Shown here piece after piece: positions 31,693 to 57,277 of a stretch of DNA of 57,277 nucleotides. The stretch's first letter is position 1, and each line of letters opens with the position of its first letter. The translations under genes and the position numbers were made by a program. Under the pieces are notes generated by a model. The model was not told the DNA's origin. It worked only from the letters and a program-made list of their open reading frames with translations, and did no database searches. Origin of the DNA: an uncultured Eubacterium sp. (GTDB lineage Bacteria > Bacillota > Clostridia > Lachnospirales > Lachnospiraceae); NCBI GenBank assembly GCA_905236805.1, contig CAJOPH010000029.1, forward strand, positions 1 to 57,277, in the 5' to 3' direction.

Positions 31693-31700
31693 AACCTATC

Positions 31701-33137: not shown

Positions 33138-33138
33138 A

Positions 33139-35007: not shown

Positions 35008-35022
35008 ATCTTAAACCCTTTT

Positions 35023-39100: not shown

Positions 39101-39329
39101 TTGAATCATACGCGCCCATGAAAATGACGGCATCCGGACGGATGCTCTCAAATATCTGAGGTATCGATTCATTTACGTATGAGAAATTGTATTGCTCGAA
39201 AACCTTCGGTATACGCTTTTTTACATGATCCGTACCCGTAAGGACATAGATTCTGTCGCCTTCCTTGGAAAGCTTGTCTATCAGGGCATCACTCAGATAG
39301 CTCCTTGCTCCTACTAAAGCTACATCCAT
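36147..39329 (-). CDS. pelD: PelD-like c-di-GMP receptor fused to an N-terminal SDR/epimerase-like domain and C-terminal Ig-like repeats
   Basis: 1060 aa. Aa 1-310 have an extended-SDR fold (DAVIFMGAY, LYLSSEQV, RLDHLYG) with no YxxxK anywhere, and VGARSYLS replaces GxxGxxG. Four TM follow at about aa 325-440, then a GAF-like region and a degenerate GGDEF-like region with RSSD (37275-37286). Two 71-aa Ig-like repeats lie at 36648-36860 and 36423-36635, followed by a beta-rich tail. Confidence 0.75.
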   Translation of the reverse strand: MDVALVGARSYLSDALIDKLSKEGDRIYVLTGTDHVKKRIPKVFEQYNFSYVNESIPQIFESIRPDAVIFMGAYDSNFPDQVEQRHILEYSTGLVNILTSLSSMNKKVRFLYLSSEQVFENPSTENYTEESEVPTISNPKNNLIRQGEMTVKNFGSFGNMETISLRLDHLYGTPASSYDMPPMFREMLKEALDDGMIHSNSRHEFSMLHSSDAVDYIYRVMTAESFEKDLYHLSSGKVVNETAVANLLAEGLGREVKVEERNVGAPFRLVLDGSCFHTEFGTRVFDDPQKTLPQLASAVKHHYTKYFGTKKKNKEDRAQGIKAQVADIIFKLIPFIENAVMFIPFFMLNNRATDSQYFANLDFLLLYVLLFAVVFGQQQAAFSGVLATAGYLYRQQYDRSQFDVVLDYNTYVWIAQLFIVGLVVGYIKDRLKVIRDEDEVEIDYLTRQREDISEINTTNVQIKNVLENQIVNQEDSFGKVYSITSSLDHYEPEDVLFFAAEIVEMLVGTQDVAIYTVENSDYARLFAATSPIARSLGNSIKYPEYTDLYEDFINDRVYVNKTMDERYPLMANAIFSEEKMRMIVMVWGIPWDHMNLGQANMLKVIGLLIQNAVVRANNFMDALEQQRYLEGTRILETGAFTSLVRAFLNAQRRELTIATVLRLNFKNVGDTRELETASHMIRSSDYMGSLSDKNYYLLLSNTDREAAKFVIDRFDKKGIGTTVMETQDVFYLLEQEIEQIEPQIVPDGGEADSSQEAGTWGAMEIPKEDRTKILGMRGEASVDEIVEESNIAQALAGDLSKMSLAALHGGDIPEGDDPIDLSMVRVLDFQDVYGFTGRPIQPKPTMAIGDYLLRRGHDYEIAYVNNTRPGTGTLTIEGMGRFVGEIKKDFKICYSVEDVVVFDLDDIYPFTGDPVAPKITVRYGLRILEHGEDYVLSYENNRSIGTGIVVIHGQGKYTGKKSLPFKIGLLPPKAVISRSLGAPTIAWEETPGCDGYQIFRYNPHSGKWKRTAELPAGVNKWTDSDARKKGRTRGRYAIRSVRDDKVSEIAIISMNRGVSA

Positions 39330-40706: not shown

Positions 40707-40739
40707 GGATTGGATGGAAAGTATAGGATCGAGGTGCTT

Positions 40740-41438
40740 ATGTTTTTAGAATTATCCGGTATCCGGAAGAGCTACGGCTCCGCGGACAATGTAGTAGAGG
40801 TATTGAAGGGAATAGACGCTACGGTGGAAAAGGGGGAGATCTGTGTGCTTTTGGGACCTTCAGGCTCAGGAAAATCCACCCTTTTGAACATCATAGGTGG
40901 GATAGATTCGGCGGATTCGGGATATGTCTCCATAAATGGAGAAAAGACCGGGGAAATGAACGAAAAGAGTCTGACCCGCTACAGGCGAAGCCATCTGGGG
41001 TACGTTTTCCAGATGTATAACCTGATCCCGAATCTTACCGTGAAAGAAAATGTGGAGGTGGGAGCCTACCTTTCGGATGATCCTTTGGACATAGATGACC
41101 TTATTTTGACACTGGGTCTAAAGGATCATATACACAAGCTCCCGAACCAGCTTTCGGGGGGGCAGCAGCAAAGAACATCCATAGGAAGAGCAATAGTCAA
41201 AAATCCCGACATACTTCTTTGTGATGAGCCCACGGGGGCGTTGGATTACAATACGTCAAAGGAGATATTAAAGCTCATAGAGGATGTTAACGGGAAATAC
41301 AAAAACACCGTCATTATGGTCACCCACAACGAGGCCATAAAGGAGATGGCAGATCACGTGATCACCCTAAAGGACGGGATGATCAGGAAGGATTACAAAA
41401 ACGAGAGCAAGATTCCGGCTATGGATCTGGATTGGTAA
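40740..41438 (+). CDS. ABC transporter ATP-binding protein (MacB/LolD/FtsE-like)
   Basis: Walker A GPSGSGKST, signature LSGGQQQR and Walker B LLCDEPTGALD are present. ATG at 40740 (MFLELSGIRKSYG) follows GAGGTG. The track ORF extends 30 nt further upstream. Confidence 0.9.
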   Translation: MFLELSGIRKSYGSADNVVEVLKGIDATVEKGEICVLLGPSGSGKSTLLNIIGGIDSADSGYVSINGEKTGEMNEKSLTRYRRSHLGYVFQMYNLIPNLTVKENVEVGAYLSDDPLDIDDLILTLGLKDHIHKLPNQLSGGQQQRTSIGRAIVKNPDILLCDEPTGALDYNTSKEILKLIEDVNGKYKNTVIMVTHNEAIKEMADHVITLKDGMIRKDYKNESKIPAMDLDW

Positions 41439-41450
41439 CGGAGGCGTTTT

Positions 41451-43796
41451 ATGAGAAGTCCACTTTGGAAAAGGATCCCCAGGGATCTTTTTCGTGAATT
41501 TATTAAATATCTGGCTATCTTTCTTTTCATGACCCTGACCATAGGATTTGTTTCAGGATTCCTTGTCGCGTCACGCGGAATGCAGATAGAGTATGATGCT
41601 TCTTTCGAAAAATACAACGTGGAAGACGGGCATTTTACCCTGGATGAGGAATGCACCGCGGAACTTAAAGAAAGAATAGAAGAGCACGGAGTAAGAATCT
41701 ATGAAAATTTCTACTCGGATCTTTCCGTTGAAGGAAAAAACGAAACAGTTTTAAGGATTTTCAAACCAAGGCAGGAAGTAAATAATGTGGATATCCTGGA
41801 TGGCAGGCTCCCCAAGAGCGATGATGAGATTTCGCTGGATCGCCTTTTCATGAGGAACAATGATTTCAAGATGGGAGATGATATCACTTTATCGGGAAAG
41901 ACCTATCGCATCTGTGGGATGGTGGCCCTTTCTGACTACAGCACCCTTCATAAAAATTATAATGATTTCATGTTTGACTCAACGAATTTCGGGGTGGGAA
42001 TAATCTCCAACGAGGCCTTCGGGCAGATAGATGAGGACTCCTATGTTTTTGAATATGCCTGGAAGTATGATGAGTTTCCGGAAAGCGAAACCAAAGAAAA
42101 AGAAGTATCTGATGATCTGATGATAGATGTGGCCAAGGATGTTCTGAAGGAGGGGAACCGGCTCAAAGCCTTTGCTCCCAGGTATGCAAACCAGGCTATA
42201 ATGTTCTCGGGAGATGACCTGGGGAGCGACAGACCCATGACAGAGGCGCTTTTATATGTCCTTATATTCATTATGGCCTTTGTCTACAGGGTGACCATTT
42301 CTCACACCGTGATGAGAGAGTCCTTTGTAATAGGAACTTTAAGGTCCCTGGGCTATACGAAGGGGGAGATATTCCGTCACTACCTGTCGCTCCCTCTTTT
42401 GGTCACATTAATGGCCGCGATACTGGGAAATGTGGCGGGATATACGGTATTTGAAGACGTGGCGGCCTGGCTGTATATGAACAGCTACAGCCTGACGCAT
42501 TATGTTTCGTATTTTTCACCGGAGGCCTTCATAAAAACCACCGTCATACCGATGGCGATAATGACCTTTGTCCTGAGCATTTCGCTTTGGAAAAAGCTTT
42601 CTGTTTCACCGCTTGATTTTATCCGCGGAGATATAACGAAGTATAAAGGGCAGCGGGCCGTTTCTCTGCCTCCCTTTAAGTTTTTTATGAGATTCAGGAT
42701 ACGCGTGCTTTTGCAGAACATGGGCAGCTATACGACGCTCTTTTTCGGTATAATTTTCTCGGGGCTTTTATTGATGTTCTGCATGGTGATGACTCCTTTG
42801 CTTCATGGGTATTCGGAAAATGCCTTAAAATACAAGCCTGCCGATTACCAGTATATCTTGAAGGAGCAGCAAGACCTTGATTCTTCCATAGCCGAAAAAT
42901 ATTGTGTGACCTCCCTGAAAATGATAGATGATTTTTATGACCCTGAGGAGATCTCCGTGTACGGGATAGTGGAGGATACCAAGTATTTTAAGGATTGGGA
43001 TTTTCCGACGGACGGTGTTATCATTTCGTTTGATATAGCGGAAAAATACCGGCTGAAGGAAGGAGATGTTTTTGTGCTGAAGGAGGAATTTGGAACGGAC
43101 CTTTACGCATTCAGGGTGGCACAGGTAGCCGATATAAAATCCTCCATGAATATCTATATGAGCCAGGAAAAATGGTGTGAGACATTTGAGGACGTGATCA
43201 GGGAATCTTCTGATATGGAAGGGCAGCTGGGGCTTATCATAGGGGATATCACGGGCAACAATGACACATCTTTCTACAACGGATATTTTTCCGATGTGGA
43301 ACTGGACGGAACATATCTTCGTGATGATGTGGTGGCAACCAAGATTACGGATGCGGATCTTACCGCACTCTCGAGGCAGATGGACATATCCATGGGAGAG
43401 ATGTTTCAGATGGTCTCGGTGTTTGCGCTGGTACTTTTTGCGCTCCTTATATTCCTTCTTACGAAGCTGGTATTGGAAAAAAACGCCTCCTCCATTTCCA
43501 TGACAAAGATATTAGGGTATTCGGATGTGGAGATAGCCAGGCTCTATCTGATGCCCTCCGTATGGGTGGTGATCTTTTCGTCGATAATGGCCCTTGTCTT
43601 AAACACCTTGTTCTTTAAGGTGATCCTAAGGATTTTTCTGAAAGGGTATGGCGGATGGTTCGACCTTGTCATTTCACCGGGGCTTTATTTGGAAATGTTT
43701 TTGATGATGTTTTTAACATATTTGGTAGTGGCAGTATTCCAGTTTTTTAAGATCAAAAAAATACCGCTGGATGAAGCCTTGAAGAATGCGGAATAG
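41451..43796 (+). CDS. ABC transporter permease with two FtsX-type modules
   Basis: 781 aa. Two repeats each comprise a TM, a large extracytoplasmic domain and three TM (FtsX/MacB-like), e.g. RESFVIGTLRSLGYTKGEI and SISMTKILGYSDVEI. Confidence 0.8.
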   Translation: MRSPLWKRIPRDLFREFIKYLAIFLFMTLTIGFVSGFLVASRGMQIEYDASFEKYNVEDGHFTLDEECTAELKERIEEHGVRIYENFYSDLSVEGKNETVLRIFKPRQEVNNVDILDGRLPKSDDEISLDRLFMRNNDFKMGDDITLSGKTYRICGMVALSDYSTLHKNYNDFMFDSTNFGVGIISNEAFGQIDEDSYVFEYAWKYDEFPESETKEKEVSDDLMIDVAKDVLKEGNRLKAFAPRYANQAIMFSGDDLGSDRPMTEALLYVLIFIMAFVYRVTISHTVMRESFVIGTLRSLGYTKGEIFRHYLSLPLLVTLMAAILGNVAGYTVFEDVAAWLYMNSYSLTHYVSYFSPEAFIKTTVIPMAIMTFVLSISLWKKLSVSPLDFIRGDITKYKGQRAVSLPPFKFFMRFRIRVLLQNMGSYTTLFFGIIFSGLLLMFCMVMTPLLHGYSENALKYKPADYQYILKEQQDLDSSIAEKYCVTSLKMIDDFYDPEEISVYGIVEDTKYFKDWDFPTDGVIISFDIAEKYRLKEGDVFVLKEEFGTDLYAFRVAQVADIKSSMNIYMSQEKWCETFEDVIRESSDMEGQLGLIIGDITGNNDTSFYNGYFSDVELDGTYLRDDVVATKITDADLTALSRQMDISMGEMFQMVSVFALVLFALLIFLLTKLVLEKNASSISMTKILGYSDVEIARLYLMPSVWVVIFSSIMALVLNTLFFKVILRIFLKGYGGWFDLVISPGLYLEMFLMMFLTYLVVAVFQFFKIKKIPLDEALKNAE

Positions 43797-43806
43797 GCTG
43801 GTGATC

Positions 43807-46800
43807 TCACACCAGCATCCGCTTTGCTTCCTCTATGACTTCATCATACTCCCTCATTACCGCATCATGCCCATGACGTATGTCATCTATCCTCTCCTCT
43901 TTCCCGGCCTTTTCGAGCTCATAGGCATGGTCGGCAAACTCCATGGCCCCTATGGTCTTTGAAGTGCTCTTTACGGCATGTATCTGCACGGTATAATTCC
44001 GTATGTCTCCCTCCTCCAGATATTTCTCAAGGGCTCTCATCTTCTCATCTTTTTCCTCCACATAGGTCTTTAGCATCTCCTTGTAAAAATCCGGATCTTC
44101 CATGCAATACCCAAGCCCTACTTCCATGTCAATATGCTTTTTCCCATCTTCTTTTTCTTCAGGCAGACCGTCTGAAATATCCTCCTTAGACTCAGAGGTC
44201 TTGGAAACATTTGCAGCCTCCGGGGTCTTGGGAACATCTACAGCCTCTTGGACCTCTCGGGTCTTCACATCCCCTAAAGTCTCTCGGGTCTTTGCCTCCC
44301 CTGAAGGCTCTTTAGTCTTTTCGCTTTTTGATGATTTCAAAGATACCTTTTCCACCGGCAGATATTCCTTCAGGATCTTTTCCATTGCCCTGACTTCTAT
44401 GGGTTTTGAGATATAGTCGGTAAAACCCTCCTTCAGATACTCCTCCCTGGCACCCGATATTGCGTTGGCGGTCATCATGATGACAGGCATTGAGCCATCA
44501 AGAAGACCCTTATTTTGCATCTCATGCAGTGTCTCCACACCATCCATCTGCGGCATCATATGATCGATAAAGAGAATGTCGTATTCACCTGCCGCTGTCT
44601 TTTCTATTGCCTCCCGGCCCGAGATGGCCGTCTCTACCTGCATGGCAGAACGCTTCAAAAGACCCTTTGCCACCTTGAGGTTCATATTGTTATCATCAAC
44701 GACAAGAACCTTCGCGTCGGGAGCGTAAACATATTCGACCTCAGATGTTTTCTCCCCGGATGCCGCCAGCGTCTTCTCATAATCCCCGATAGGCGTATCA
44801 TCCACTATCTGCTGCCTTATGTCAAAATAAAAGTTAGAGCCTTCTCCGTAAACGCTGTCAAGCTGAAGGGAAGAGTCCATCATAAGAAGGAGCTTTTGCA
44901 CGATGGAAATTCCAAGCCCCGTCCCTTCTATTGCCCTGTTTTTCTCCATATCCAGTCTGGCGAAGGACTCAAACAAGGTCTCCCTGTCCTCATCCCTGAT
45001 ACCCATGCCGGTATCTTCCACCTCCACATGGAGGATAATATATTCAGCCGTTCGTCCCGCGGAATTTATGCGCAAAGTCACGCTGCCTTCCTGCGTATAT
45101 TTCACGGCATTTGTAAGTATATTCGTTATGACCTGCCGTATCCTCACATCATCCCCGTAGAGCGACTTGGGCAGATTGGAATCTATTTCCAGCTTAAGCA
45201 AAAGATCCTTCTTCTCCGCGCGCTCACGCACCATGTTTACGAGGTCATTTACCATGGACGCGGTATCATACTGTACCGGGACGATCTCCATTTTTCCGTC
45301 CTCTATCTTTGAAAAGTCCAGGATACTGTTGATCAGCGTAAGAAGTGTTCTTCCCGCATTTTGGATATTGTCGGAGTATTCCAGAACGTCCTCGTTGTCC
45401 GTCTCCCTAAGGATCATCTCGTTCATTCCAAGGATGGCATTTATGGGGGTTCGGATCTCATGTGACATCTGCGCAAGGAACTTTGATTTTGCCTCCCCCG
45501 CATATCTTGCGTCATCAGCGGACTTTTGAAGGACACTTACAGCCCTCTTCTGCCGTCTGTCGATCATGCGAAGCAGCATGACGGTAACCGTGATCCCCAC
45601 GCCAAATATGATCAAAAAGACGATATCGTATCCGACGAGACTCCCATAGATCACTTTCCAGTTCTTTATACAGAAAATGGAAAATCCGGTTGTTTCATCC
45701 GTGACTGCATATACGGCCTTGTAATTTCCGTCATAATCCTTCAGCAAAACCGTCTCATCGGCATAAGCCGCATCAAGGTAGCCCGCCTCCTCCAAAGAAA
45801 CAGCCCTTTCCTCGGTCATCTGATATTCGCCGTCGGGATGGTTTATGATATTTCCATCAGAATCCGCAATGAAGGCATACCCCTCGTCAGTGTAGCTTGA
45901 CGCAAGGATCTCCGTTAGCTTGTCCAGGAAAAAGTCGATTCCGAAGATTCCAAGATAGTTGCCGTTCTTGTCATAAACCCTCTTTGATATCGTGACGCAG
46001 TACGCCCCCACCTGGGAATCAAAATATGGCGTGGTGATGTAGAAGCCATCCTCCTTTTCCGACTCCATGCTTCCTATATACCACTGCCTCTCCTCCATGT
46101 TCCATCCCTCTTCCGGCTCCCATCCGTTGTTCATGATAACGATATGCTCCGCCTTAGGGTTGGTCATGTATGACACGGAAATATCCTCATACTGTACGGT
46201 GATATCGTTAAGCCACTCCACGCAGGCCTCATAGTCATCAAGGATCGTGGGGTTCGTGGAAATGTAGCTTACGAACATATCAAGCACGCTCTTTTGCTCT
46301 ACGACCCACGAATCGAGTTCTGAGACATATCCTTCCGCCTCCCTCTCCATCCGGGTATTTCCCCAGTTTTTCATGATAGTGGTAGATATGCTGATGCAAA
46401 GGATCATGGTGAAGGCAAGCAATGTAACGATTCCCGCCGCGGCTTTCATCTTGGATTTATCCGAAAGCTGTATATCCTCTGCTTTGGAAGAACCGTATCT
46501 TTTTTTTCGTGTGGTTTTTTTCCCTTTGTCTTTTTCGCTCTCTTTCAGAAAGGACAGTCTTCCAAATGAATCACGCAGGCTTACGGAAGACTTCTTTAGT
46601 TCTCCCATATATTCGTCGGGATCGTCGCTGGATAAAAACATCCGGTAATCACTCTTTTTTACCACCTCGTCCATCGGAGCCTTCATCTCATCTACGATAT
46701 CCGAGATGGCCTGTTCCGTCCTAAACAGGCGCCTTTCGGCTCTTTTTCTGTATTTTTGCCCGATAATATACAAAAGGATGATCCCTGCCATAAGGCATAT

Positions 46801-48543
46801 ATCCAAAAAAGTGTATAATATGAGGCTTAAAAGATTGGTTCTGTAGAGTCTTGCGTCACTGACTACAGACAAAAGATACCACTCGTTCTGCGTACAGCTG
46901 TAAAATACGGTACTCTCGCTCCCTGATATCTGTGTTTTGAAAAACATGGAGTCCTGTCCGGACGAAAGTATCTTACGAAAGGCAGAAGTATATTGCGGAA
47001 GAGCCTGCGCAAGGGTCTGTCCAAGGAGCGACTCATCCGGGTACCCCACGATCTGCCCCGCGCTGTTTACAATCAGGGCGTCTCCGCCCTCAATGGTAAT
47101 ATCAGAAACATTTTCCTGAAGGGAGACCAAAGAAAAATCCAGTCCGACAACGGTATCTTCATCCTCAAGTAGCTCTGATACCGTAAAACACATATCTCCC
47201 GTCCTGGCATCCTGATAGGGAGCCGTGATATACACATTGCCCCGGCCCTTTTTCTTCGCGCCTTTATACCAGTCCCTTTCAGTTGCGACAAACCCCTCAG
47301 TCTCAGTAAAATCCGGTATTATATACCAGCCCTCACCCGCTGTGTATATATTCATGCAGTCTTCATTTCCATATTTTTCTTTCAGCCCGTTCAGGTATTT
47401 TTCAAGCTTTTCATTACCCGTGTTGTCTGAATTTTCTTCGATCAGGCTGCTTACGCCTTCAGCCACCTTGTGCGTCAGTATCTCCGATTCGTAAAGGGTA
47501 CTTTCGAGTTTCCCTGAAACCTCAGTAAGCTGCTGCCTTCCGAGCGCCTGTGACTGATTTCCTATCATGTCATAAAACTGCTTTACATTTAGTCCCAGTA
47601 TCAGCGCCATGGCTACGGCAAATACCGCAAGTATCACATAATTAAATCTGTTCTTTAAGAAATTGCCTTTTCCCTTTGTCTTAGGCTTTTTTTCTTTTGC
47701 AAAAAGCAGACCAAAGGTTCCCCTCCCGCAATTCGATGAAATGGCGGGGGAAGCCTCCACGCATCTTATGTCCTTAAAATCCGCATATCTTTTGGTCTCC
47801 TCCTTTATCTCATCAAGCTCCCGATCCGAAAGACCCGCATGTGAGATAAAAAGGATGGAGTTATCTATCCTTTCAAAATCCTTAAGCTCATGACGGATGT
47901 ACGCCTTCTTTACCTGATCCCACTTTCCAAACCTGACTCCTCCCACAGAGATCTTACCACGTTTCATCATAAGAAGCGGATGAAGAAGCAGCTTCTCACA
48001 GATACGGAAAACCCCGTCAGAAAGTCGTCCGCTTCTGTTTAGAAATTCCAGATTCTTTACGATAAAGCCGGAGGATATCCCTTCAGCGTATTTTTTTACT
48101 TCTTCCCTCAGCTCATCGGCACTTTCAAAATCCTTTGCGATCCTTGCGGCATAAAGTACCACAAGTCCCAGACCGCTGGATATCTGGCCCGAATCAAGTA
48201 CACTTACGCCTGATATTTTCCCTGTGGCTTCCACCGCGTTATCGTAACCCCGGGAGGAATTTCTTCCCATGGAAATATGCAGGATCTCCCTGCAGTTTTT
48301 TTTCTGCCGCACAAAAAAATTCCGGTAGTCTTCAGGCGAAGGTGCCTCTGACTGCGCAAATTTTTCCGGATCTTCCATGTACTCCAAGACCTCATCAGCC
48401 GATATTTCAAGGTCATCCAGAAACTTTCCGCCGGAGGTCTTTACATAGTATGGACATATCGCGATTGGAAGAGACAAAATCATTTTGTCAGGCAGATCGC
48501 ATACACTGTCTGTGGTTATTAAAATACCGCCACTGTCACTCAT
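43807..48543 (-). CDS. hybrid sensor histidine kinase: DegV domain, two extracytoplasmic Cache-like domains, HisKA-HATPase, receiver, Hpt
   Basis: 1578 aa. Aa 6-282 are DegV-like (ILITTDSVCDLP...APSPEDY...VLDSGQISSGLG...FLNRSGRLS...ISSNCGRGTFGL). There are four TM and two Cache-like blocks of about 240 aa. The H-box FLAQMSHEIRTPINAILGM places the His codon at 45460-45462. GMGI and GTGLGISIV are present, along with a REC (VLVVDDNNMN...LFIDHMMPQMDG) and an Hpt (QIHAVKSTSKTIGA). Confidence 0.85.
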   Translation of the reverse strand: MSDSGGILITTDSVCDLPDKMILSLPIAICPYYVKTSGGKFLDDLEISADEVLEYMEDPEKFAQSEAPSPEDYRNFFVRQKKNCREILHISMGRNSSRGYDNAVEATGKISGVSVLDSGQISSGLGLVVLYAARIAKDFESADELREEVKKYAEGISSGFIVKNLEFLNRSGRLSDGVFRICEKLLLHPLLMMKRGKISVGGVRFGKWDQVKKAYIRHELKDFERIDNSILFISHAGLSDRELDEIKEETKRYADFKDIRCVEASPAISSNCGRGTFGLLFAKEKKPKTKGKGNFLKNRFNYVILAVFAVAMALILGLNVKQFYDMIGNQSQALGRQQLTEVSGKLESTLYESEILTHKVAEGVSSLIEENSDNTGNEKLEKYLNGLKEKYGNEDCMNIYTAGEGWYIIPDFTETEGFVATERDWYKGAKKKGRGNVYITAPYQDARTGDMCFTVSELLEDEDTVVGLDFSLVSLQENVSDITIEGGDALIVNSAGQIVGYPDESLLGQTLAQALPQYTSAFRKILSSGQDSMFFKTQISGSESTVFYSCTQNEWYLLSVVSDARLYRTNLLSLILYTFLDICLMAGIILLYIIGQKYRKRAERRLFRTEQAISDIVDEMKAPMDEVVKKSDYRMFLSSDDPDEYMGELKKSSVSLRDSFGRLSFLKESEKDKGKKTTRKKRYGSSKAEDIQLSDKSKMKAAAGIVTLLAFTMILCISISTTIMKNWGNTRMEREAEGYVSELDSWVVEQKSVLDMFVSYISTNPTILDDYEACVEWLNDITVQYEDISVSYMTNPKAEHIVIMNNGWEPEEGWNMEERQWYIGSMESEKEDGFYITTPYFDSQVGAYCVTISKRVYDKNGNYLGIFGIDFFLDKLTEILASSYTDEGYAFIADSDGNIINHPDGEYQMTEERAVSLEEAGYLDAAYADETVLLKDYDGNYKAVYAVTDETTGFSIFCIKNWKVIYGSLVGYDIVFLIIFGVGITVTVMLLRMIDRRQKRAVSVLQKSADDARYAGEAKSKFLAQMSHEIRTPINAILGMNEMILRETDNEDVLEYSDNIQNAGRTLLTLINSILDFSKIEDGKMEIVPVQYDTASMVNDLVNMVRERAEKKDLLLKLEIDSNLPKSLYGDDVRIRQVITNILTNAVKYTQEGSVTLRINSAGRTAEYIILHVEVEDTGMGIRDEDRETLFESFARLDMEKNRAIEGTGLGISIVQKLLLMMDSSLQLDSVYGEGSNFYFDIRQQIVDDTPIGDYEKTLAASGEKTSEVEYVYAPDAKVLVVDDNNMNLKVAKGLLKRSAMQVETAISGREAIEKTAAGEYDILFIDHMMPQMDGVETLHEMQNKGLLDGSMPVIMMTANAISGAREEYLKEGFTDYISKPIEVRAMEKILKEYLPVEKVSLKSSKSEKTKEPSGEAKTRETLGDVKTREVQEAVDVPKTPEAANVSKTSESKEDISDGLPEEKEDGKKHIDMEVGLGYCMEDPDFYKEMLKTYVEEKDEKMRALEKYLEEGDIRNYTVQIHAVKSTSKTIGAMEFADHAYELEKAGKEERIDDIRHGHDAVMREYDEVIEEAKRMLV

Positions 48544-50593
48544 AAGATCCTCCCGTTAGTTTTTTTATGCACCTTGCCATTTCCTTTATACCGACAGGCT
48601 TAGGCAAAAATTCATCAAACCCCTCAGCCAGAAATCCCTCTCTCGCGCCGCTTACGGCGTTAGCTGTAAGTACCACGATCGGACGTTTGCTGTAAAATCC
48701 GTTTCTGATCCGCCTTATTTCCTTCATGGCATCCGTCCCGTTTTGGAGCGGCATCATGTGATCCATAAATATTATATCAAAATCATTGACGGCGCAGAGG
48801 TCTTTGGCTTCCCGGCCGCTATTTGCTTCCGAAACCATAACCCCCATTTTTCCCAGTATGCCCCTTGCTACCATGATATTCATTTTCTCATCATCCACCA
48901 CAAGGGCATGTACTTTCCCACTTACGGTAAATTCCTGATCATCGGAAGTTTCGGAAAGCGACATCGTTTTGCTCCCGGGCGATGTTTTTTTAAGGAAATC
49001 AACGACCGAAAGCAAAAAAACGGGCTTGGGAATGACAGTGATGTGACTTCCTTCTTTCAGGGAAAAATCAGGTCCCGCAAAGATACATACCCATATCTGT
49101 TTTGCTTTTTTTTCAAAGAAATCAGGATCTGTTTCATATTCCCTCTGCGCGATAAAGATATGGGTGATTTTTCCATGGGATACAAGTTCTTTTAGATTGT
49201 CAATAGACGAAGCGATCTCAACGTTTACGCCGATATCCTTTACCACATGATCTACGACCCGGTAGTAGTATTCACCGACCTCATACCTTACATATTTCTT
49301 CCTGTCAAACCAGCACAGCGCACGATATCCGCCCACGTTTTCAATGGCTATGGAAGGAGTCTTGTCTATTACTTTCTGCGGCAGCGTTAAATGAACATTG
49401 GTACCTTCCTCGCTGCTTTTCATGGACATAAAGCCCTGCATGGAGGTCACTATCCCATGCGCGATATATAGTCCCAGGCCAAGTCCTCCCTTTTTTCTGT
49501 CCGTGTTGGTATCTCCGGCATAGACCCCTTCCCTGTATTTTGACAGCTCTTTAGGATTCATGCCCTTACCGGTATCACGGATATCGATATTCAGGTTTAT
49601 CCCATAGTCAGTATCCCGTTTGCTCACATAAATATAACCGCCGCCTACTTCCGTGAATTTCACGGCATTGTCAAGCAAAATGACGATGAGCTTTCTGATG
49701 CGTTTCGCATCACCCAAAAGGACTCTTGGAATATCAGGGTCAATATCTATGGCAAAGTCAAGATCCATCTGTTTGCTCCCGAACACCATTCCCACGGAAT
49801 CATTGACCACTGACAAGATTTCGTACTCTTCTTCGGAAAGCTTAAAATACCCTGACTGAAGCTCAGAGTAGTTTAAGATATCGCTTACCTCCCTGCGCAT
49901 ACGCCTGCCGGCGCGGAATATCGCATTCAGGTTTTTCCTGTCTTCATCGCTTCGTTTTTCGGAAAGCATCAGCTCGGAAATCCCGCTCACCACATTTATC
50001 GGTGTGCGAAGCTCATGGGACATATTGGAAAGAAAACGCTTTGTTTCTTCATGCGCTTCATCTACCTCCTTGCGGAGGGCTTCCTTTTCCCCGGAATCCT
50101 TCTGGTAAATACTCATAAAATAAAGGGATATGACGGTCGCGAAAAACAAACAGAATATTCCCAGCGCTATCCTGGAATAAACGATCTGTTCGGTTCCCGG
50201 CTCCAGGAAATGAACAAAGAAAATACTTTCAAAAATATATGCAAGATAGGATACCGCCACGAGGATCACGAGTTTCTTGTCATTTTGCCTGGAAAGAAGT
50301 ATGATCAAAAGACACAAGAGGATCGGCACATCCGTTATGCTCTGTCCCTTCCCCCCGTAATAGCCAAGGACACAGAGCATAACGATCACGTAAAAGTATA
50401 GCCTAAGGCCTGCTTTTCCTATATCGAGGAAATGGATACACCAGCACAGAAGCACTGATAACGTAACGGGAAGCAGTGCCCACGCTCCCCAGTCAGAGAT
50501 GACTATGATCACATCCAGAAGGGCGCACATCACCGTAAATGAGACCAAAACCACCACATGAAAGCCTGTTTCCATTTCTTTATCCTGTGCCAT
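48536..50593 (-). CDS. hybrid sensor histidine kinase (polytopic N-terminus, HisKA-HATPase, pseudo-receiver-like insert, receiver)
   Basis: 685 aa with about six N-terminal TM, the H-box FLSNMSHELRTPINVVSG, DTGKGM, GGLGLGLYIA and a C-terminal REC (ALVVDDEKMN...IFMDHMMP). Its stop overlaps the next kinase start within ATGAGTGA. Confidence 0.85.
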   Translation of the reverse strand: MAQDKEMETGFHVVVLVSFTVMCALLDVIIVISDWGAWALLPVTLSVLLCWCIHFLDIGKAGLRLYFYVIVMLCVLGYYGGKGQSITDVPILLCLLIILLSRQNDKKLVILVAVSYLAYIFESIFFVHFLEPGTEQIVYSRIALGIFCLFFATVISLYFMSIYQKDSGEKEALRKEVDEAHEETKRFLSNMSHELRTPINVVSGISELMLSEKRSDEDRKNLNAIFRAGRRMRREVSDILNYSELQSGYFKLSEEEYEILSVVNDSVGMVFGSKQMDLDFAIDIDPDIPRVLLGDAKRIRKLIVILLDNAVKFTEVGGGYIYVSKRDTDYGINLNIDIRDTGKGMNPKELSKYREGVYAGDTNTDRKKGGLGLGLYIAHGIVTSMQGFMSMKSSEEGTNVHLTLPQKVIDKTPSIAIENVGGYRALCWFDRKKYVRYEVGEYYYRVVDHVVKDIGVNVEIASSIDNLKELVSHGKITHIFIAQREYETDPDFFEKKAKQIWVCIFAGPDFSLKEGSHITVIPKPVFLLSVVDFLKKTSPGSKTMSLSETSDDQEFTVSGKVHALVVDDEKMNIMVARGILGKMGVMVSEANSGREAKDLCAVNDFDIIFMDHMMPLQNGTDAMKEIRRIRNGFYSKRPIVVLTANAVSGAREGFLAEGFDEFLPKPVGIKEMARCIKKLTGGSYE

Positions 50594-50607
50594 CTTTCCA
50601 CTCCTCC

Positions 50608-50652
50608 TATATGTGAAACACCTATATGCGAAACACCTTCATGCGAAACACC
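50608..50652. repeat. three tandem 15-nt direct repeats in the intergenic spacer upstream of the kinase gene
   Basis: The plus strand reads TATATGTGAAACACC / TATATGCGAAACACC / TTCATGCGAAACACC, contiguous, ending about 15 nt before the AGGAGG RBS of the 48536-50593 gene (minus strand). Confidence 0.85.
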
Positions 50653-50671
50653 TTCCGGTTCCTTTGGAAAC

Positions 50672-52060
50672 TTATTTTTCCCTCATGTCGTAATCCTTAT
50701 CCTCATCTATCATCTCCAGCATGATGTCCGCAATCTGCCCGTCAAACTGCGTGCCCTTCCCCTTCTCTATCTCGGAGCGCACCACCTCCTGCGGAAGCGC
50801 TTTACGGTAGCTTCTGTTTGAAGTCATGGCGTCATAACAGTCTGCCACGCAGATGATCCGTGCCACCTCCGGTATATCATCTCCGCAAAGTCCGTCAGGG
50901 TAGCCTTTGCCGTCTATACGCTCGTGATGCCAGTGGGCTCCCACCGAAAGCCCCGGCATCTCTGATATGGTTTCAAGGATCAAAGCCCCCTTTACCGTAT
51001 GGCTCTTTATCACCTCAAACTCTTCATCCGTAAGCTTTGCCGGCTTGTTTATGATCTCATTCGGGATGCCAATCTTTCCGACGTCATGAAGCATCGCCGC
51101 ATAATAAATATCGTTTACCTCATCATCCTTTTTACCCATACGCCTGGCCAGCTCCCTGGAGTATGCAGCGACCCGGTTCGAATGTCCGTTCGTGTATGTA
51201 TCCTTTGCGTCAATAGCACCGGAAAGGGCAAAAATGATCTGCTCCGAGAGCTTTTGGATCTTGCCAATGCTCGCGATAAGATCCTTGGTCTTTCTGTCCA
51301 CCTCGGCCTGAAGGAAATTTTGGAGCCTGTGAAGCTCCGTGATGCGGTGCACCCTCTCCCTTACGATCTCTGCATCGAAAGGCTTTCGGATAAAGTCCAT
51401 GACCCCCATCCGAAAGAGCCTTTTTTCCACTTCCCTGTCATCGTCCGCCGTAAGAACGACGACCGGAACCCCCCTTACCCTATCCATCTGTTTCATTCCG
51501 GCGAAGGTCTCCTCCCCGTCAATCCCCGGCATTTTGTAATCCAGCAGGATGATATCAGGCTCGTTTTCCTGAAGGAAATCCAAGCCTTCCTCTCCGGAAG
51601 AGACGGATGATACCTGATATATCCCGTCAAAGATCTTTTTCATCATCATATGGTTCATCGGTTCATCGTCAATGACCAGCATGAGAAGGTTGTCCTTTTC
51701 GGCCAAGGCATCCTCTACGGCGGCAATCATTTCCTTAGGCCTCAGGGGCTTTTTTATAAAGCCTTTTGCCCCAAGGCGAATCGCCTCTGACATATCATCC
51801 TGTGATCCTGACGCGGTAAGAAAAGCTACCCGAAGCTCCGATAAGGAAGGATTCTTCCTTATCTCTTCAAGCGTCTGTATTCCGTCCATTTCAGGCATTT
51901 CGACATCCAGAAGCAAAAGGTCTACCGGAACTTCCCCAAGAACCCCAAGGCACTCCTTTCCGGAATTGGCCGTAATGACCTCGTAGCCTGCTTTTTCCAG
52001 GACGAATTTTGTGTTCATACGGTTCATCTTCTCATCATCTGTGACAAGTATTTTTTTCAT
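50672..52060 (-). CDS. response regulator with two receiver domains and an HD-GYP output domain
   Basis: 462 aa. REC1 is ILVTDDEKMN...LLLLDVEMPEMDG and REC2 is LVIDDEPMN...IILLDYKMPGIDG, followed by HDVGKIGIP and HHERIDGKGYPDG. Confidence 0.9.
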   Translation of the reverse strand: MKKILVTDDEKMNRMNTKFVLEKAGYEVITANSGKECLGVLGEVPVDLLLLDVEMPEMDGIQTLEEIRKNPSLSELRVAFLTASGSQDDMSEAIRLGAKGFIKKPLRPKEMIAAVEDALAEKDNLLMLVIDDEPMNHMMMKKIFDGIYQVSSVSSGEEGLDFLQENEPDIILLDYKMPGIDGEETFAGMKQMDRVRGVPVVVLTADDDREVEKRLFRMGVMDFIRKPFDAEIVRERVHRITELHRLQNFLQAEVDRKTKDLIASIGKIQKLSEQIIFALSGAIDAKDTYTNGHSNRVAAYSRELARRMGKKDDEVNDIYYAAMLHDVGKIGIPNEIINKPAKLTDEEFEVIKSHTVKGALILETISEMPGLSVGAHWHHERIDGKGYPDGLCGDDIPEVARIICVADCYDAMTSNRSYRKALPQEVVRSEIEKGKGTQFDGQIADIMLEMIDEDKDYDMREK

Positions 52061-52121
52061 GGTTATTTCCGCCTATGATCGAAAAAATTGCGTAGTCATT
52101 TTTTTGCAGTTCCTTACTATA

Positions 52122-55100
52122 CTACAAAAGATTTTCCAGGGTCTCGAAGAGAACATCCGGTTCTATCGGTTTTGAAAGGTGTGCGTTAAGTCCGGCCTGC
52201 AGGCTATGCTGCACGTCCTCATCAAAAGCATTGGCTGTAAGCGCAATGATAGGTATTGTTTTTGCATCCGGCCTGTCCTTTTGCCTGATAAGCTCCGTCG
52301 CCTGAAGTCCATCCAGCTCCGGCATGCGCATATCCATAAGGATCGCGTCATAATATCCTTCAGGATTATCCATAAACATATCTACCGCTATTTGTCCATT
52401 GGCGGCATGCTCCGACTTGATGTCCCTCATCTCCAATATGTTCATGAGGATCTCGGCATTGATATCCACATCCTCTGCCACCAGTATTCTTTGCCCGCCA
52501 AGCTCTGCTTTCTTCTCCCCCGGTCCCGCACTCTTTTTCTTCATGGAATTCTTGAATTCCTCAAAGAGATTGCCTATGAACAATGGCTTTGATATGAAGC
52601 TGTCCACTCCGGAAGAAACTGCCTCATCTAATATGTCGTCCCAATTATAGGCCGTAAGTATGATGATCGCTGATTCATCACCTACTTCCGACCTTATCTG
52701 CCTCGTGGTCTCGACCCCGTCCATCCCGGGCATCTGCCAATCCACCACGATCAGATTGTAAGGCTCCATCCTTCCATGGCGAAGCTTTACCATCTCTAAT
52801 GCTTCTTCACCTGAATGGGCAATATCTGCTGACACTCCCGCCTTGCCAAGAACCAGCTTCGCATGGTCACATGCAACGGAATCATCATCCACGATAAGAA
52901 CCGTCATCTCCTCGGGATTGATCTCTATATCCCCATCGTCCGCCGAAAAATCCCTTGACGAATCCAAAAGGGTGACAGTCACGGTGAAGGTGGTTCCCTT
53001 TCCCTTTTCGCTTTCCACCTCTATGTCACCATTCATCATCTCCACGATACTTTTGGTGATCGCCATACCCAGCCCTGAGCTTCCGTACTTGTTGGCGGCC
53101 ATCTCGTCTTCCTGGCTGAAGGTTTCGAATATCTTCGGGATATACTCCTTGCTCATTCCGATACCGGTATCGGCCATGACAAACCTTAATGTCGACCTGT
53201 TGTCAAATCCTCCGGTCTTTTCCACCCGGAAATCAACTCTTCCGCCTTCCGGGGTGAACTTCACCGCGTTGCCCAGGATATTGATAAGGATCTGCCTTAG
53301 CTTGGTACTGTCACCTACGTAATAATCTTCTACGTTTCCCTTGATATTGCAATTGTATTCAAGACCCTTTTCCCTGCACTGTCCGCTTATTATGGTATTG
53401 ACCTGCTCCAACAGCTTGGAAAATGAAAACTCCCCGTTTCTCAAAGTCATCCTTCCCGACTCGATACGGGACATGTCCAGAATATCATTGATAAGGGAAA
53501 GAAGATGCTGCGCGGAGCCCCCTATCTTTTCGAGATAATCTCTCGTGGTATCAGAGATATCCTCATCATTTAGAGCAAGGCTGTCAAGACCGATTATCGC
53601 ATTCATCGGTGTCCTTATCTCATGGCTCATGTTGGAAAGAAATACGGTCTTTGCCCTGCTTGCCTCCTCGGCCGTCTTTAAGGCATCGCTTAGGGCCTGT
53701 CTCTTTTCAAGGGAATCCCTCATGTCCTTGTCAATATCGGTAAAGCCCACGCCCACGGCATGGACCCTGTGGTCGTCCCTGTCCTCGGCATGGCGCACAC
53801 CCGCCATCCTCAGCATTTCATAGCTTTCCACACCATCCCTTATGACGAGGTACCTGTAGCTTATTATCACTTCATTGGCAAGCCTTCCCCTGATATGGTC
53901 AGGCTTTATGAATTCAAAAAAGCCGTCCCTGTAATCCTCCGCAACGTATTTTTGCGCATATTCACCAAATGTGCTCGCAAAGTGGAAATGCCCTACCTGG
54001 CTGATGCCGTCATCAAAATTTCTGTCGTTTTGGTAGCATATTCCATCATCATTGTCAAGGTCTACATAATATACGCTCCTGTAATCCGAAGCCAGGGCCG
54101 TGATCATCTTGTCCTGCCTGGTTCTTTGCTTTTCCTTTTCCAAAAGCTCCTCCTGCAGGGCAAGCTGCTCCTCGAGCTCCTCCTGGCGGACGCGGTTTTC
54201 GGTCTCCGAAATCTCCTTGTCCAGGGTCAGCTGAGCCGCCTTTTTTGACTGCAGAATGACAAACAAAAATATGCCCACGATCATTACCGCCGCGACCACG
54301 GACAGCACCAGGCTTCTCGTGATTATCTTGTCTGATATGGTGTTCATCTGCTCACTTATGACACTCTCCCTGACAAGGTATGTAAGCATCCAGTCAGTGC
54401 CGGAAACAGGAACATAATATAAGGTTTCCTTGATATCATTATAAGTAAATGATGCCACTCCCTTAATCGATTCATTAAAGTCCTTACTCACCTCTTCTAT
54501 GGAATACTCATCTTCAAAATCCGCATGCTCCAATGCCAAAAGAAGATTGTCCTCGCTCGCAAGGCCTCCCAACACCATGTTGGCCAGGGATATCCCGTCT
54601 TTGGTATAGATGTTGCAAAATGTCGTGTTGTTACCGGACTGAAGAGATATCCCGGAAAGCATGTTGTCCATGTCTATTTCAACAAAGCATGCGACAAGTG
54701 TATCTCCCTGAAAGGAAAGCCTGTCCACCGGAACGGCTATGATCACCTTTTTATTATCGCCCTTGACATCCTTGACCGAAATCTGTGGCTCGGAGATTTC
54801 ATTATAATCAAAGCCATATTCTTCAATATCGGTCCTTGTTCCCCTGGACGTATATATCATCCCATCCGTACCGACAAAGGCAAACTTTTCAAAACCGTAC
54901 ATCTGCTTCATTTTTGCCTGGTATGCCTGGAAGTTATCGACACTTTTGAGGTCTTGTTTATCCATCAGCCACAGGGCGATATCAATATCCGAGATATAAT
55001 CATCCAGAACAGACTCGACTACCTGCTCCCTTCTTCCTGCCAATTCCTCCAGATACAAAAGGCTTACGTTTCTAACAGCCGTACCGGTATCATTGCTCGC

Positions 55101-55208
55101 GCTTCTTCCCGTCATCAGGGTTCCCACCACGAGAACGCCCGCCACTATCACACTGCCGATTATAAGGATCGGCATAATGCTTTTCCTTTCTTTGTTTTTA
55201 GATGCCAT
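52122..55208 (-). CDS. hybrid sensor histidine kinase (Cache-like sensor, coiled coil, PAS-like domain, HisKA-HATPase, two receivers)
   Basis: 1028 aa with two TM flanking an extracytoplasmic domain of about 270 aa. The H-box FLSNMSHEIRTPMNAIIGL, DTGIGM and GLGMAITKSIV are present. REC1 is VLIVDDDSVA...LIVVDWQMPGMDG and REC2 is ILVAEDVDIN...AILMDMRMPELDG. Confidence 0.9.
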   Translation of the reverse strand: MASKNKERKSIMPILIIGSVIVAGVLVVGTLMTGRSASNDTGTAVRNVSLLYLEELAGRREQVVESVLDDYISDIDIALWLMDKQDLKSVDNFQAYQAKMKQMYGFEKFAFVGTDGMIYTSRGTRTDIEEYGFDYNEISEPQISVKDVKGDNKKVIIAVPVDRLSFQGDTLVACFVEIDMDNMLSGISLQSGNNTTFCNIYTKDGISLANMVLGGLASEDNLLLALEHADFEDEYSIEEVSKDFNESIKGVASFTYNDIKETLYYVPVSGTDWMLTYLVRESVISEQMNTISDKIITRSLVLSVVAAVMIVGIFLFVILQSKKAAQLTLDKEISETENRVRQEELEEQLALQEELLEKEKQRTRQDKMITALASDYRSVYYVDLDNDDGICYQNDRNFDDGISQVGHFHFASTFGEYAQKYVAEDYRDGFFEFIKPDHIRGRLANEVIISYRYLVIRDGVESYEMLRMAGVRHAEDRDDHRVHAVGVGFTDIDKDMRDSLEKRQALSDALKTAEEASRAKTVFLSNMSHEIRTPMNAIIGLDSLALNDEDISDTTRDYLEKIGGSAQHLLSLINDILDMSRIESGRMTLRNGEFSFSKLLEQVNTIISGQCREKGLEYNCNIKGNVEDYYVGDSTKLRQILINILGNAVKFTPEGGRVDFRVEKTGGFDNRSTLRFVMADTGIGMSKEYIPKIFETFSQEDEMAANKYGSSGLGMAITKSIVEMMNGDIEVESEKGKGTTFTVTVTLLDSSRDFSADDGDIEINPEEMTVLIVDDDSVACDHAKLVLGKAGVSADIAHSGEEALEMVKLRHGRMEPYNLIVVDWQMPGMDGVETTRQIRSEVGDESAIIILTAYNWDDILDEAVSSGVDSFISKPLFIGNLFEEFKNSMKKKSAGPGEKKAELGGQRILVAEDVDINAEILMNILEMRDIKSEHAANGQIAVDMFMDNPEGYYDAILMDMRMPELDGLQATELIRQKDRPDAKTIPIIALTANAFDEDVQHSLQAGLNAHLSKPIEPDVLFETLENLL

Positions 55209-55300
55209 ATGGCCTTACCCCTCACTTTTAATAGGTCACTGCAAATAAGCTGCCCTACAATGATACCATGGAAATCGTGGAATTTCAAGAGTTTGCGGCA

Positions 55301-55333
55301 CAAAAATAAAGGAAACGGCTTTATCCGTTTCCT
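55301..55333 (-). terminator. rho-independent terminator downstream of the yfbR-like gene
   Basis: A 9-bp stem AGGAAACGG/CCGTTTCCT (55310-55333) with a 6-nt loop, followed on the minus strand by TTATTTTTG. Confidence 0.7.
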
Positions 55334-56853: not shown

Positions 56854-57277
56854 CTATAGCTCTTCCTCCCACTTTGTGATGTTCCTCTCGCCTTCCGCGT
56901 AACCAAAGTTTATCCCCAGCTTATGTACCGTAATGCCCTTCTTCTTGGCCGGAAGGATATACTTTTGCGCGTATTTTTTATCATCTATCTGGGACAGGGC
57001 CTCGCCCGGGCTTTTGTTCAGCTTGAACTCTATTATGTAGAGGTGGTCTCCTGCGTCAAGGACTGCGTCTATCCGGCCCTTGTTAGTCTTTTCCTCTGTA
57101 AGAAACTCCATACCGCACATCTCGAATATGACCCTTACCATGGACTGGTAGTACTTTTCCGCCTTTATCTGGATGTCGTACGGGAAGCCCGCGAAATACG
57201 ATGTGAGAAGCTCTATCATCTCACCGGTGTCGCCTTCCCTTGCGCTCTTTCTTAGTTTCCGTCCGAAGGTTATGGGG
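56854..57277 (-). CDS. PD-(D/E)XK nuclease-fold protein (PDDEXK_9 / AAA-ATPase_like C-terminal region), 5' end outside the window
   Basis: GRIDAVLDAGDHLYIIEFKLNKS is the PDDEXK_9 signature. The reading frame stays open from 57219 to the window edge, so the gene is truncated by the window. Confidence 0.65.
   Translation of the reverse strand, partial: PITFGRKLRKSAREGDTGEMIELLTSYFAGFPYDIQIKAEKYYQSMVRVIFEMCGMEFLTEEKTNKGRIDAVLDAGDHLYIIEFKLNKSPGEALSQIDDKKYAQKYILPAKKKGITVHKLGINFGYAEGERNITKWEEEL

Follow-up and report, generated by a model that had tools for sequence, protein, structure and literature searches.

Gene Content of the Four-Gene Block

The DNA analyzed here (the window) is a stretch of 57,277 nucleotides from an uncultured Eubacterium sp. 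(contig CAJOPH010000029.1, assembly GCA_905236805.1), and its subject is a block of four two-component signalling genes at positions 43807-55208. The initial annotation had described this block as a phosphorelay of three hybrid histidine kinases (here K1, K2 and K3) and one response regulator (RR), and had suggested that the relay may act through an HD-GYP phosphodiesterase on cyclic di-GMP (c-di-GMP) and thereby switch off a neighbouring Pel polysaccharide locus. All four co-directional open reading frames (ORFs) were recovered on the minus strand with exactly the boundaries annotated.

Pfam searches assigned HisKA, HATPase_c and two receiver (REC) domains to K1 (52122-55208, 1028 aa); two REC domains and an HD_5/HD domain to RR (50672-52060, 462 aa); HisKA, HATPase_c and one REC to K2 (48536-50593, 685 aa); and a DegV domain, two dCache_1 stretches, HisKA, HATPase_c, REC and a histidine phosphotransfer (Hpt) domain to K3 (43807-48543, 1578 aa). 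The count of six receivers and one Hpt agrees with the initial annotation. The receivers are complete, with the acidic pair, the phospho-acceptor Asp, the Thr and the Lys present in six of six, and the kinases are intact, the H-box SHE[IL]RTP and the N and G1 boxes being found in all three. No Pfam match to a DNA-binding, GGDEF or EAL domain was obtained in any of the four proteins, again as annotated.

The reported overlap between the K2 stop and the K3 start was read at the junction (48536-48543, minus strand) as ATGAGTGA. In a consensus scan, the hits of which are pattern matches only, a terminator-like hairpin (55333-55310) and, after it, a promoter-like site (55288-55260) were detected on the minus strand upstream of K1 (55260-55333), and no minus-strand terminator comparable to this hairpin was found between the four genes. 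The hairpin and the promoter-like site likely mark the start of the transcription unit.

K2 consists of a six-helix transmembrane (TM) sensor, HisKA, HATPase, a pseudo-receiver and a REC, and lacks an Hpt. About six TM helices with short loops were predicted from hydropathy; the N-terminal membrane sensor (residues 1-165; 50099-50593, minus strand), with its six hydrophobic segments, is denoted K2TM and is kept in the 58 loci described below. For the first 180 residues of K2, no Pfam family matched even at E = 10. The pseudo-receiver, located between the ATPase and the true REC (residues ~415-550), lacks the acceptor Asp and had not been counted in the initial annotation.

K3 is arranged as DegV, TM, dCache, TM, linker, TM, dCache, TM, HisKA, HATPase, REC and Hpt. 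The four TM helices predicted from hydropathy put the DegV domain on the cytoplasmic side of the membrane and the two Cache domains on its outer side. The Hpt (residues 1489-1555; 43879-44079, minus strand; motif HAVKSTSKTIG) scored 25.9 bits against a Pfam cut-off of 24.6 and is the only one in the block. K1 and K2 lack an Hpt, a gene for a stand-alone Hpt was not found near them either, and both would therefore need an Hpt in trans.

K1 contains a TM helix, an extracellular dCache-like domain, a second TM helix, a PAS-like region, HisKA, HATPase and two REC domains, the two TM helices being predicted from hydropathy. Of the three Cache-type domains annotated initially, the two dCache_1 domains of K3 were confirmed, whereas the third, the extracellular domain of K1, gave only a weak match below the cut-off (E 7e-4, 19.6 bits, cut-off 45).

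Conservation of the Cassette in Related Genomes

One genome per GTDB species was scanned with K2 as the query, and 80 loci were kept, in which ORFs were called and domains were assigned by phmmer seeds. The K2-type six-helix kinase was present in 58 of the 80 loci, as full-length homologs in species-level genomes of Lachnospiraceae, Oscillospiraceae/Ruminococcaceae, Ruminiclostridium, Saccharofermentans and Butyrivibrio. In 54 of these 58, a DegV-containing relay protein was encoded directly downstream, the other four cases being contig-edge or split genes. Recurring in 54 of 58 species-level genomes, the adjacency of K2 and its DegV partner is more than chance.

With histidine kinase cores abbreviated as HK, the downstream protein was of the type HK-REC-DegV in 36 loci, HK-REC-DegV-Hpt in 12, DegV-Cache-Cache-HK-REC-Hpt in four and DegV-HK-REC-Hpt in two. 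The K3 architecture of the window was also observed downstream of K2 in loci L001, L002, L008-L010 and L048.

Exactly one Hpt per pair of K2 and DegV partner was found in 56 of 57 loci, on K2 in 37 and on the DegV partner in 19. The junction between the two genes was overlapping or abutting in 46 of 57 loci, mostly of the 4-nt ATGA type (36 of the 46). The window itself, with three kinases and one Hpt, has the composition of a multi-kinase relay with a shared Hpt.

Gene order was followed among RR relatives as well. At 73% RR identity, the order was TetR / RR / K2 (685 aa) / DegV-Cache-Cache-HK-REC-Hpt / further HK-REC-Hpt, and at 62% identity (Lachnospiraceae bacterium NC2004) it was RR / K2 (685 aa) / a 485-aa DegV-Hpt protein. 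As far as gene order indicates, the conserved core of the block is the three-gene cassette of RR, K2 and K3, which is shared among Clostridia of the rumen and gut.

More distant RR relatives were accompanied by quite different kinases, namely FIST and a hybrid kinase in L005 and L007, and Bmp and hybrid kinases in L006. These pairings, the abundance of hybrid kinases in clostridial genomes and the lack of conservation of K1 would fit a mere pile-up of independent two-component genes, in which K1, K2 and K3 signal to unlinked partners and one alone serves RR. However, K1 and K2 need an Hpt in trans, the Hpt complementarity, the adjacency and the overlapping junctions recur across the loci, and the RR-K2-K3 order is retained at both levels of RR identity. 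Such a pile-up is regarded as very improbable, and the shared-Hpt relay is preferred.

A receiver-linked c-di-GMP enzyme (HD-GYP and/or GGDEF) was present within the same gene chain in 37 of 58 loci. The single Hpt per pair, the overlapping junctions and this linkage lend comparative support to the convergence through an Hpt on a c-di-GMP enzyme that had been proposed initially.

The commonest c-di-GMP partner was a REC-GGDEF-REC-HD-GYP protein, encoded directly upstream of K2 in 23 loci; the GGDEF signature motif was found in 22 of the 23 genes and the HD-GYP signature motifs in all of them. The earlier description of an HD-GYP as the only output thus holds for this window but does not describe the most frequent arrangement, the commonest partner having an intact GGDEF as well.

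In REC-GGDEF-x-REC-HD-GYP proteins, a ~160-aa stretch between the GGDEF and the second REC (L009:7628-9985 and L024:7631-9964, residues ~295-455) contains RKSD...SDRYFVFL and looks like a degenerate GGDEF domain with an RxxD I-site. It was also noted that Lachnospiraceae bacterium NC2004 has two versions of the cassette, RR / K2 / DegV-Hpt (L003, JHXB01000008) and K2-Hpt / HK-REC-DegV (L062, JHXB01000002), which in one cultured isolate is convenient for experiments. Cassette L024 likewise belongs to a cultured carrier, Ruminococcaceae bacterium AB4001.

The DegV Domain of K3

The DegV domain of K3 (residues 7-283; 47695-48525, minus strand) has a full-length, FakB-like DegV fold, scoring 133.7 bits for PF02645 (threshold 27) and 151 bits for TIGR00762 (threshold 99.7) and matching 2dt8, 4x9x and the FakB1-3 structures in the PDB. 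In FakB, the fatty acid carboxylate is bound by a network of Thr62, Ser95, Ser171 and His270, with Arg173 (PMC8892158). The equivalent positions were read from an alignment of 68 sequences, comprising 61 relay-fused DegV domains, five free-standing ones from the same loci, and the references FakB2 (4x9x) and 2dt8.

The complete FakB network was not found in K3, the residues at the positions of Thr62, Ser95, Ser171, His270 and Arg173 being Ser, Ser, Ser, Asn and Arg, respectively; Ser95, Ser171 and Arg173 are thus retained. Among the 65 sequences spanning the motif, His270 was replaced by Asn in 56 and Thr271 by Cys in 50, and this divergent type is referred to here as 'Asn-Cys'. The TSQP motif of FakB was gone in the aligned relay DegV domains. 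Arg173 was retained in DegV domains of the window type and replaced by Gln in most HK-REC-DegV proteins.

When the window DegV domain was searched against 1.84 billion representatives, 200 matches at E <= 1e-30 were obtained, and 82 of the best 150 clade representatives were fused to HK, REC or Hpt domains, whereas FakB is free-standing. Five layouts were observed in the loci (HK-REC-DegV, HK-REC-DegV-Hpt, DegV-Cache-Cache-HK-REC-Hpt, DegV-HK-REC-Hpt and DegV-Hpt), and REC-DegV and REC-DegV-Hpt also occurred among the clade representatives. This variety of fusions, a Rosetta-stone pattern, argues for a shared function.

To our knowledge, the only role described for DegV is that of a fatty-acid carrier serving fatty acid kinase. 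No literature description of DegV fused to two-component domains was found, in a search of incomplete coverage that amounts to absence of evidence only. The divergent DegV clade (His-Thr changed to Asn-Cys) occurring in phosphorelays in several fusion layouts appears to be new and undescribed, and the conserved pairing of two kinases, one of them usually carrying DegV, around one shared Hpt is a noteworthy feature that is likewise apparently undescribed.

The clade lacks the catalytic His of FakB, and the DegV domain of K3 is most likely a ligand-binding regulatory module of the relay and not a substrate carrier for FakA. The more specific proposal that 'Asn-Cys' DegV represents a novel type of cytoplasmic sensor domain, recognizing lipid ligands in the phosphorelays of rumen Clostridia, is put forward tentatively, as a possibility that falls short of being probable.

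The domain could instead be an output, receiver phosphorylation controlling lipid handling (binding and release, or contact with a FakA-type kinase) with the HD-GYP as a parallel output; the relay would then adjust fatty-acid use. DegV lies C-terminal to REC, the usual output site of response regulators, in 36 of 58 loci (HK-REC-DegV), some representatives (REC-DegV, REC-DegV-Hpt) have no kinase core, and the common-type partner kinases possess a polytopic N-terminus of ~195 aa, a sensor of their own, and thus have no need of DegV as an input. In the window clade, however, DegV is far N-terminal, ~1,000 residues ahead of REC, and DegV-Hpt proteins without a receiver exist. The change of His-Thr to Asn-Cys also argues against serving FakA, and neither fak nor pls genes turned up among the scanned ORFs of the window. 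An output role is considered unlikely, and DegV is treated further as a regulatory module.

Receivers accept phosphoryl groups from small acyl phosphates, and DegV adjoins REC or Hpt in most fusion layouts. DegV might accordingly be imagined as a chemical participant, a bound fatty acid or acyl-phosphate exchanging its phosphoryl group with the Asp of a neighbouring receiver or the His of a neighbouring Hpt, in which case the acyl-phosphate/fatty-acid pool would feed or drain the relay that sets c-di-GMP. The loss of the FakB His-Thr pair counts against such exchange, which is judged highly improbable.

The Regulator and Its HD-GYP Domain

The HD-GYP catalytic domain of RR (residues 281-443; 50732-51220, minus strand) scored 119.9 bits for HD_5 against a cut-off of 27.2 and contains both signature motifs, HDVGK and HHERIDGKGYP. 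Its PDB matches were V-cGAP3 (5z7c), the best, at 2.2e-40, and PmGH (4mcw). In the alignment with PmGH the His/Asp ligands line up, at positions which we take to bind metal as in the PmGH structure, and Tyr stands where PmGH has its third-metal Glu, as in V-cGAP3.

RR belongs to a large clostridial group of ~460-aa REC-REC-HD-GYP proteins; of 8,000 candidates scored, at least 7,817 qualified as homologs with E <= 1e-30. Of 120 homologs among the matches listed, all but one were full-length (454-490 aa). A derivation of RR from REC-GGDEF-REC-HD-GYP by deletion of GGDEF was considered and dropped, the first receiver of RR being 38% identical to the second and 37% to the first receiver of the L009 protein, a difference too small to assign orthology.

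The likeliest substrate of RR is c-di-GMP, since related cassettes fuse the same HD-GYP to an intact GGDEF and add EAL proteins. The HD-GYP could alternatively act on another cyclic dinucleotide such as 3'3'-cGAMP, or mainly on pGpG, and would then not control c-di-GMP directly; its best structural match is a cGAMP-specific HD-GYP, with which it shares the Tyr at the third-metal position. On the other hand, the HD-GYP is fused to GGDEF in the 23 related cassettes described above, REC-GGDEF-EAL and GGDEF-EAL genes are present in the gene chain of locus L094, and no gene for a cGAMP synthase was noticed in the window. We assign this alternative a very low probability and retain c-di-GMP as the presumed substrate.

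The Accessory Kinase K1

An accessory, non-orthologous hybrid kinase, mostly Cache-HK-REC-Hpt, was present in the gene chain at 14 of 58 loci, two of which (L017 and L040) represent fragments of a DegV partner truncated at the contig edge. When metagenomes were scanned with K1, only two full-length relatives were returned, one on a contig too short to inform (L093) and one that was informative (L094; JAEEGJ010001914.1, 1690-17462).

L094 is a six-gene co-directional c-di-GMP signalling island with the order REC-GGDEF-REC-HD-GYP / K2TM-HK-REC-Hpt / HK-REC-DegV / K1-type sensor-HK-REC-REC / REC-GGDEF-EAL / GGDEF-PAS-EAL, in which the K1-type kinase gene lies 28 bp downstream of the cassette. From this relative and from its position in the window, K1 is best regarded as an accessory kinase that belongs to the same system and varies between loci.

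The Pel Locus and Other Genes of the Window

The Pel locus (30202-39329) comprises pelG, pelF, a DUF2194 gene, pelE and a PelD-type gene. It is of the Gram-positive type, with the order pelD (with an epimerase-like N-terminus), pelE, DUF2194 (pelA deacetylase-like), pelF (DUF3492 and GT1) and pelG, and the same pelDEA(DA)FG order, with an extended PelD, has been published for Gram-positive loci (Whitfield et al. 2020, PMC7112168). The locus is flanked by genes for glycosyltransferases and by an accessory gene of the DUF4874/DUF4832 type. The locus is a neighbour of the relay and not part of it.

The PelD-type gene (36147-39329) encodes three TM segments according to a hydropathy scan. A single-sequence AlphaFold model of the cytosolic part was unusable (predicted local distance difference test, pLDDT, 41), while a model from a 34-sequence alignment reached pLDDT 79.5 and matched GAF-GGDEF proteins, including P. 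aeruginosa PelD 158-CT (4etz, 4etx; E ~3e-6 to 1.5e-5). The RxxD motif (RSSD; R246, D249) and an Arg 31 residues downstream (R277) were invariant in the 34 homologs.

Binding of c-di-GMP by B. cereus PelD needs the equivalent residues R363, D366 and R395 (PMC7112168), and the initial label of a PelD-type receptor is therefore reasonable. The architecture (TM segments, GAF, degenerate GGDEF with RxxD and Arg) and the pelDEAFG order both correspond to those of a PelD receptor, and window PelD is a plausible c-di-GMP-binding receptor, as judged from its residues and the structural model.

Window PelD differs from Gram-positive PelD in an extra C-terminal extension of ~330 aa. It has 1060 aa, compared with 725-732 aa in the closest full-length homologs, and the extra part (residues ~740-1060) contains two ~70-aa repeats. 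In related pel loci, a separate ORF of 771-937 aa lies between pelE and the DUF2194 gene; derivation of the extension from this ORF was dropped, as no similarity was detected.

The second HD-GYP gene reported initially (23638-24678) was also verified: it is intact and receiver-less, carries the motifs HDVGK and HHERFNGSGYP, and stands at the end of the run of pel accessory genes. A Pel-dedicated role for it was considered and rejected, its two closest informative homologs adjoining other polysaccharide genes or flagellin, not pel. Its homolog in L092 (45% identical) is directly followed by a gene for a K2-type polytopic kinase.

The initial annotation had proposed that the relay may switch off Pel; as a dedicated off-switch, the activated HD-GYP would lower local c-di-GMP, leaving PelD unliganded and stopping Pel synthesis. 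The complete pelDEA(DA)FG locus lies 4.5-13.6 kb from K3, and the GAF and GGDEF-like fold and invariant RxxD/Arg residues of PelD accord with this idea. Yet when Pel and K1 linkage was counted over 87 cassette or regulator loci, homologs of pelF, pelG, pelD, DUF2194 and GT4 genes were found within 10 kb in 0 of 87, a distance that from K2 in the window layout would take in the GT4 gene and the tail of pelD.

From the Pel side, three close pelD homologs (60-63% identical) lie on long contigs with the same pel operon, and a kinase/HD-GYP cassette within 10 kb upstream was found in 0 of 3; other GGDEF or GGDEF-EAL genes were present near two of these loci. Moreover, an ABC/FtsX gene pair (40710-43796, plus strand), convergent with K3, separates the Pel locus from the relay, and the second HD-GYP gene lies nearer to the pel accessory genes.

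Loss of the linkage in related genomes had been named in the initial annotation as grounds for refutation, and the Pel part of that interpretation therefore fails. A dedicated Pel switch is considered distinctly unlikely; the adjacency is treated as coincidental, and any effect on Pel would be exerted through the global c-di-GMP pool. The case also calls for caution, as the Pel coupling, which does not hold up, was inferred from proximity on one contig.

Homologs of the ABC/FtsX pair (74% and 59% identical) were noted in Lachnospiraceae bacterium V9D3004 (L045:17042-20000), ~1.5 kb downstream of a K2/DegV cassette whose K2 is only 31% identical to that of the window. Two further ORFs of the window are unrelated to the relay: 15128-16486, encoding a DUF234/ATPase protein whose C-terminal part resembles an Mrr nuclease, and 56854-57219, a PD-(D/E)XK_9 nuclease-family ORF at the contig end.

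Proposed Phosphorelay and Comparison with Known Systems

From the domains, motifs, gene neighbourhood and Hpt complementarity observed, phosphotransfer routes, ligands, an HD-GYP substrate and activities can be proposed. We consider it fairly probable that the block operates as a branched His-Asp-His-Asp phosphorelay, in which K2, K3 and probably K1 signal through the Hpt of K3 to the HD-GYP of RR.

A separate cue would trigger autophosphorylation of each kinase on the H-box His, namely an intramembrane signal for K2, extracellular Cache ligands for K3 and K1, and additionally a cytoplasmic lipid-like ligand bound by the DegV domain of K3. The phosphoryl group would then be passed from each kinase to its own receiver. 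All receivers would use the Hpt of K3, K1 probably feeding the same Hpt, and the Hpt would phosphorylate one or both receivers of RR. Phosphorylated RR would have its HD-GYP phosphodiesterase switched on, and c-di-GMP would fall.

Several observations weigh against this scheme. The 12 HK-REC-DegV-Hpt cassettes are mostly without an adjacent HD-GYP, and the kinase pair is therefore not wired exclusively to c-di-GMP enzymes. In seven loci of this type (L025, L032, L043, L049, L051, L055 and L057), a protein of ~255 aa is encoded downstream in place of the HD-GYP regulator; four of these proteins were read, and they consist of a pseudo-receiver-like N-terminal half and one REC, with no recognizable output domain.

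As regards the inputs, neither a homolog nor an ortholog of the K1 sensor was found at any of the 87 loci, and the inclusion of K1 is argued from one relative and from position. With His270 lost, and Arg173 lost in many members, even fatty-acid binding by DegV is uncertain, and the REC-DegV layouts would fit DegV as an output and not an input. On the output side, the best PDB match of RR is a 3'3'-cGAMP phosphodiesterase, so that its substrate is not fixed by sequence.

The nearest parallel is the Rpf system, in which RpfC, a polytopic hybrid kinase with an Hpt that binds the fatty acid diffusible signal factor (DSF), signals to the REC-HD-GYP protein RpfG (PMC5391125). In the window, K3 (HK-REC-Hpt) and RR (REC-REC-HD-GYP) are likewise encoded in one co-directional block, and a polytopic hybrid kinase is combined with a fatty-acid-binding-type domain here and with a fatty-acid cue there. 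In contrast to RpfC/RpfG, however, two or three kinases share one Hpt, RR carries a pair of complete receivers, a cytoplasmic DegV domain takes the place of the N-terminal peptide and TM region of RpfC as the lipid-type module, and the host is a Gram-positive anaerobe.

At the sequence level, orthology to RpfC/RpfG was not indicated, no NCBIfam match reaching its family cut-off, and among the window ORFs scanned no gene for an rpfF-type DSF synthase or of the enoyl-CoA-hydratase type was found. By this comparison, the relay would be RpfC/RpfG-like in its working but by sequence falls outside the Rpf family.

Convergence of kinases on one Hpt is familiar from Vibrio, where the hybrid kinases LuxN, LuxQ and CqsS, which have no Hpt of their own, converge on the single Hpt protein LuxU and the single response regulator LuxO. 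The same convergence is described for the multi-kinase/HptB networks of Pseudomonas (PMC5085249, PMC4866733). Unlike LuxU and HptB, which are free-standing, the Hpt of the present system is fused to a kinase or to DegV, and the output is a c-di-GMP turnover enzyme instead of a transcription factor or an anti-sigma antagonist.

A further parallel concerns K2. Caulobacter ShkA consists of a histidine kinase, a pseudo-receiver and a receiver, and is activated by binding of c-di-GMP to the pseudo-receiver (PMC6969517). The core of K2 has the same order of HisKA, HATPase, pseudo-receiver and receiver, and differs in its six-TM sensor. By analogy, and with the likeness being one of domain order, c-di-GMP could feed back on K2 through the pseudo-receiver.

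Significance

How c-di-GMP signalling operates in anaerobic gut and rumen Firmicutes is poorly understood, and the widespread cassette offers a defined, testable multi-input circuit there. The rule of one Hpt per kinase pair provides clean natural evidence for Hpt sharing that is amenable to biochemical testing.

A relay DegV would be a new kind of domain in the repertoire of two-component modules. Built regularly into phosphorelays, it would connect second-messenger signalling with lipid status, which would be plausible in the rumen, where we take free unsaturated fatty acids to be a major stress.

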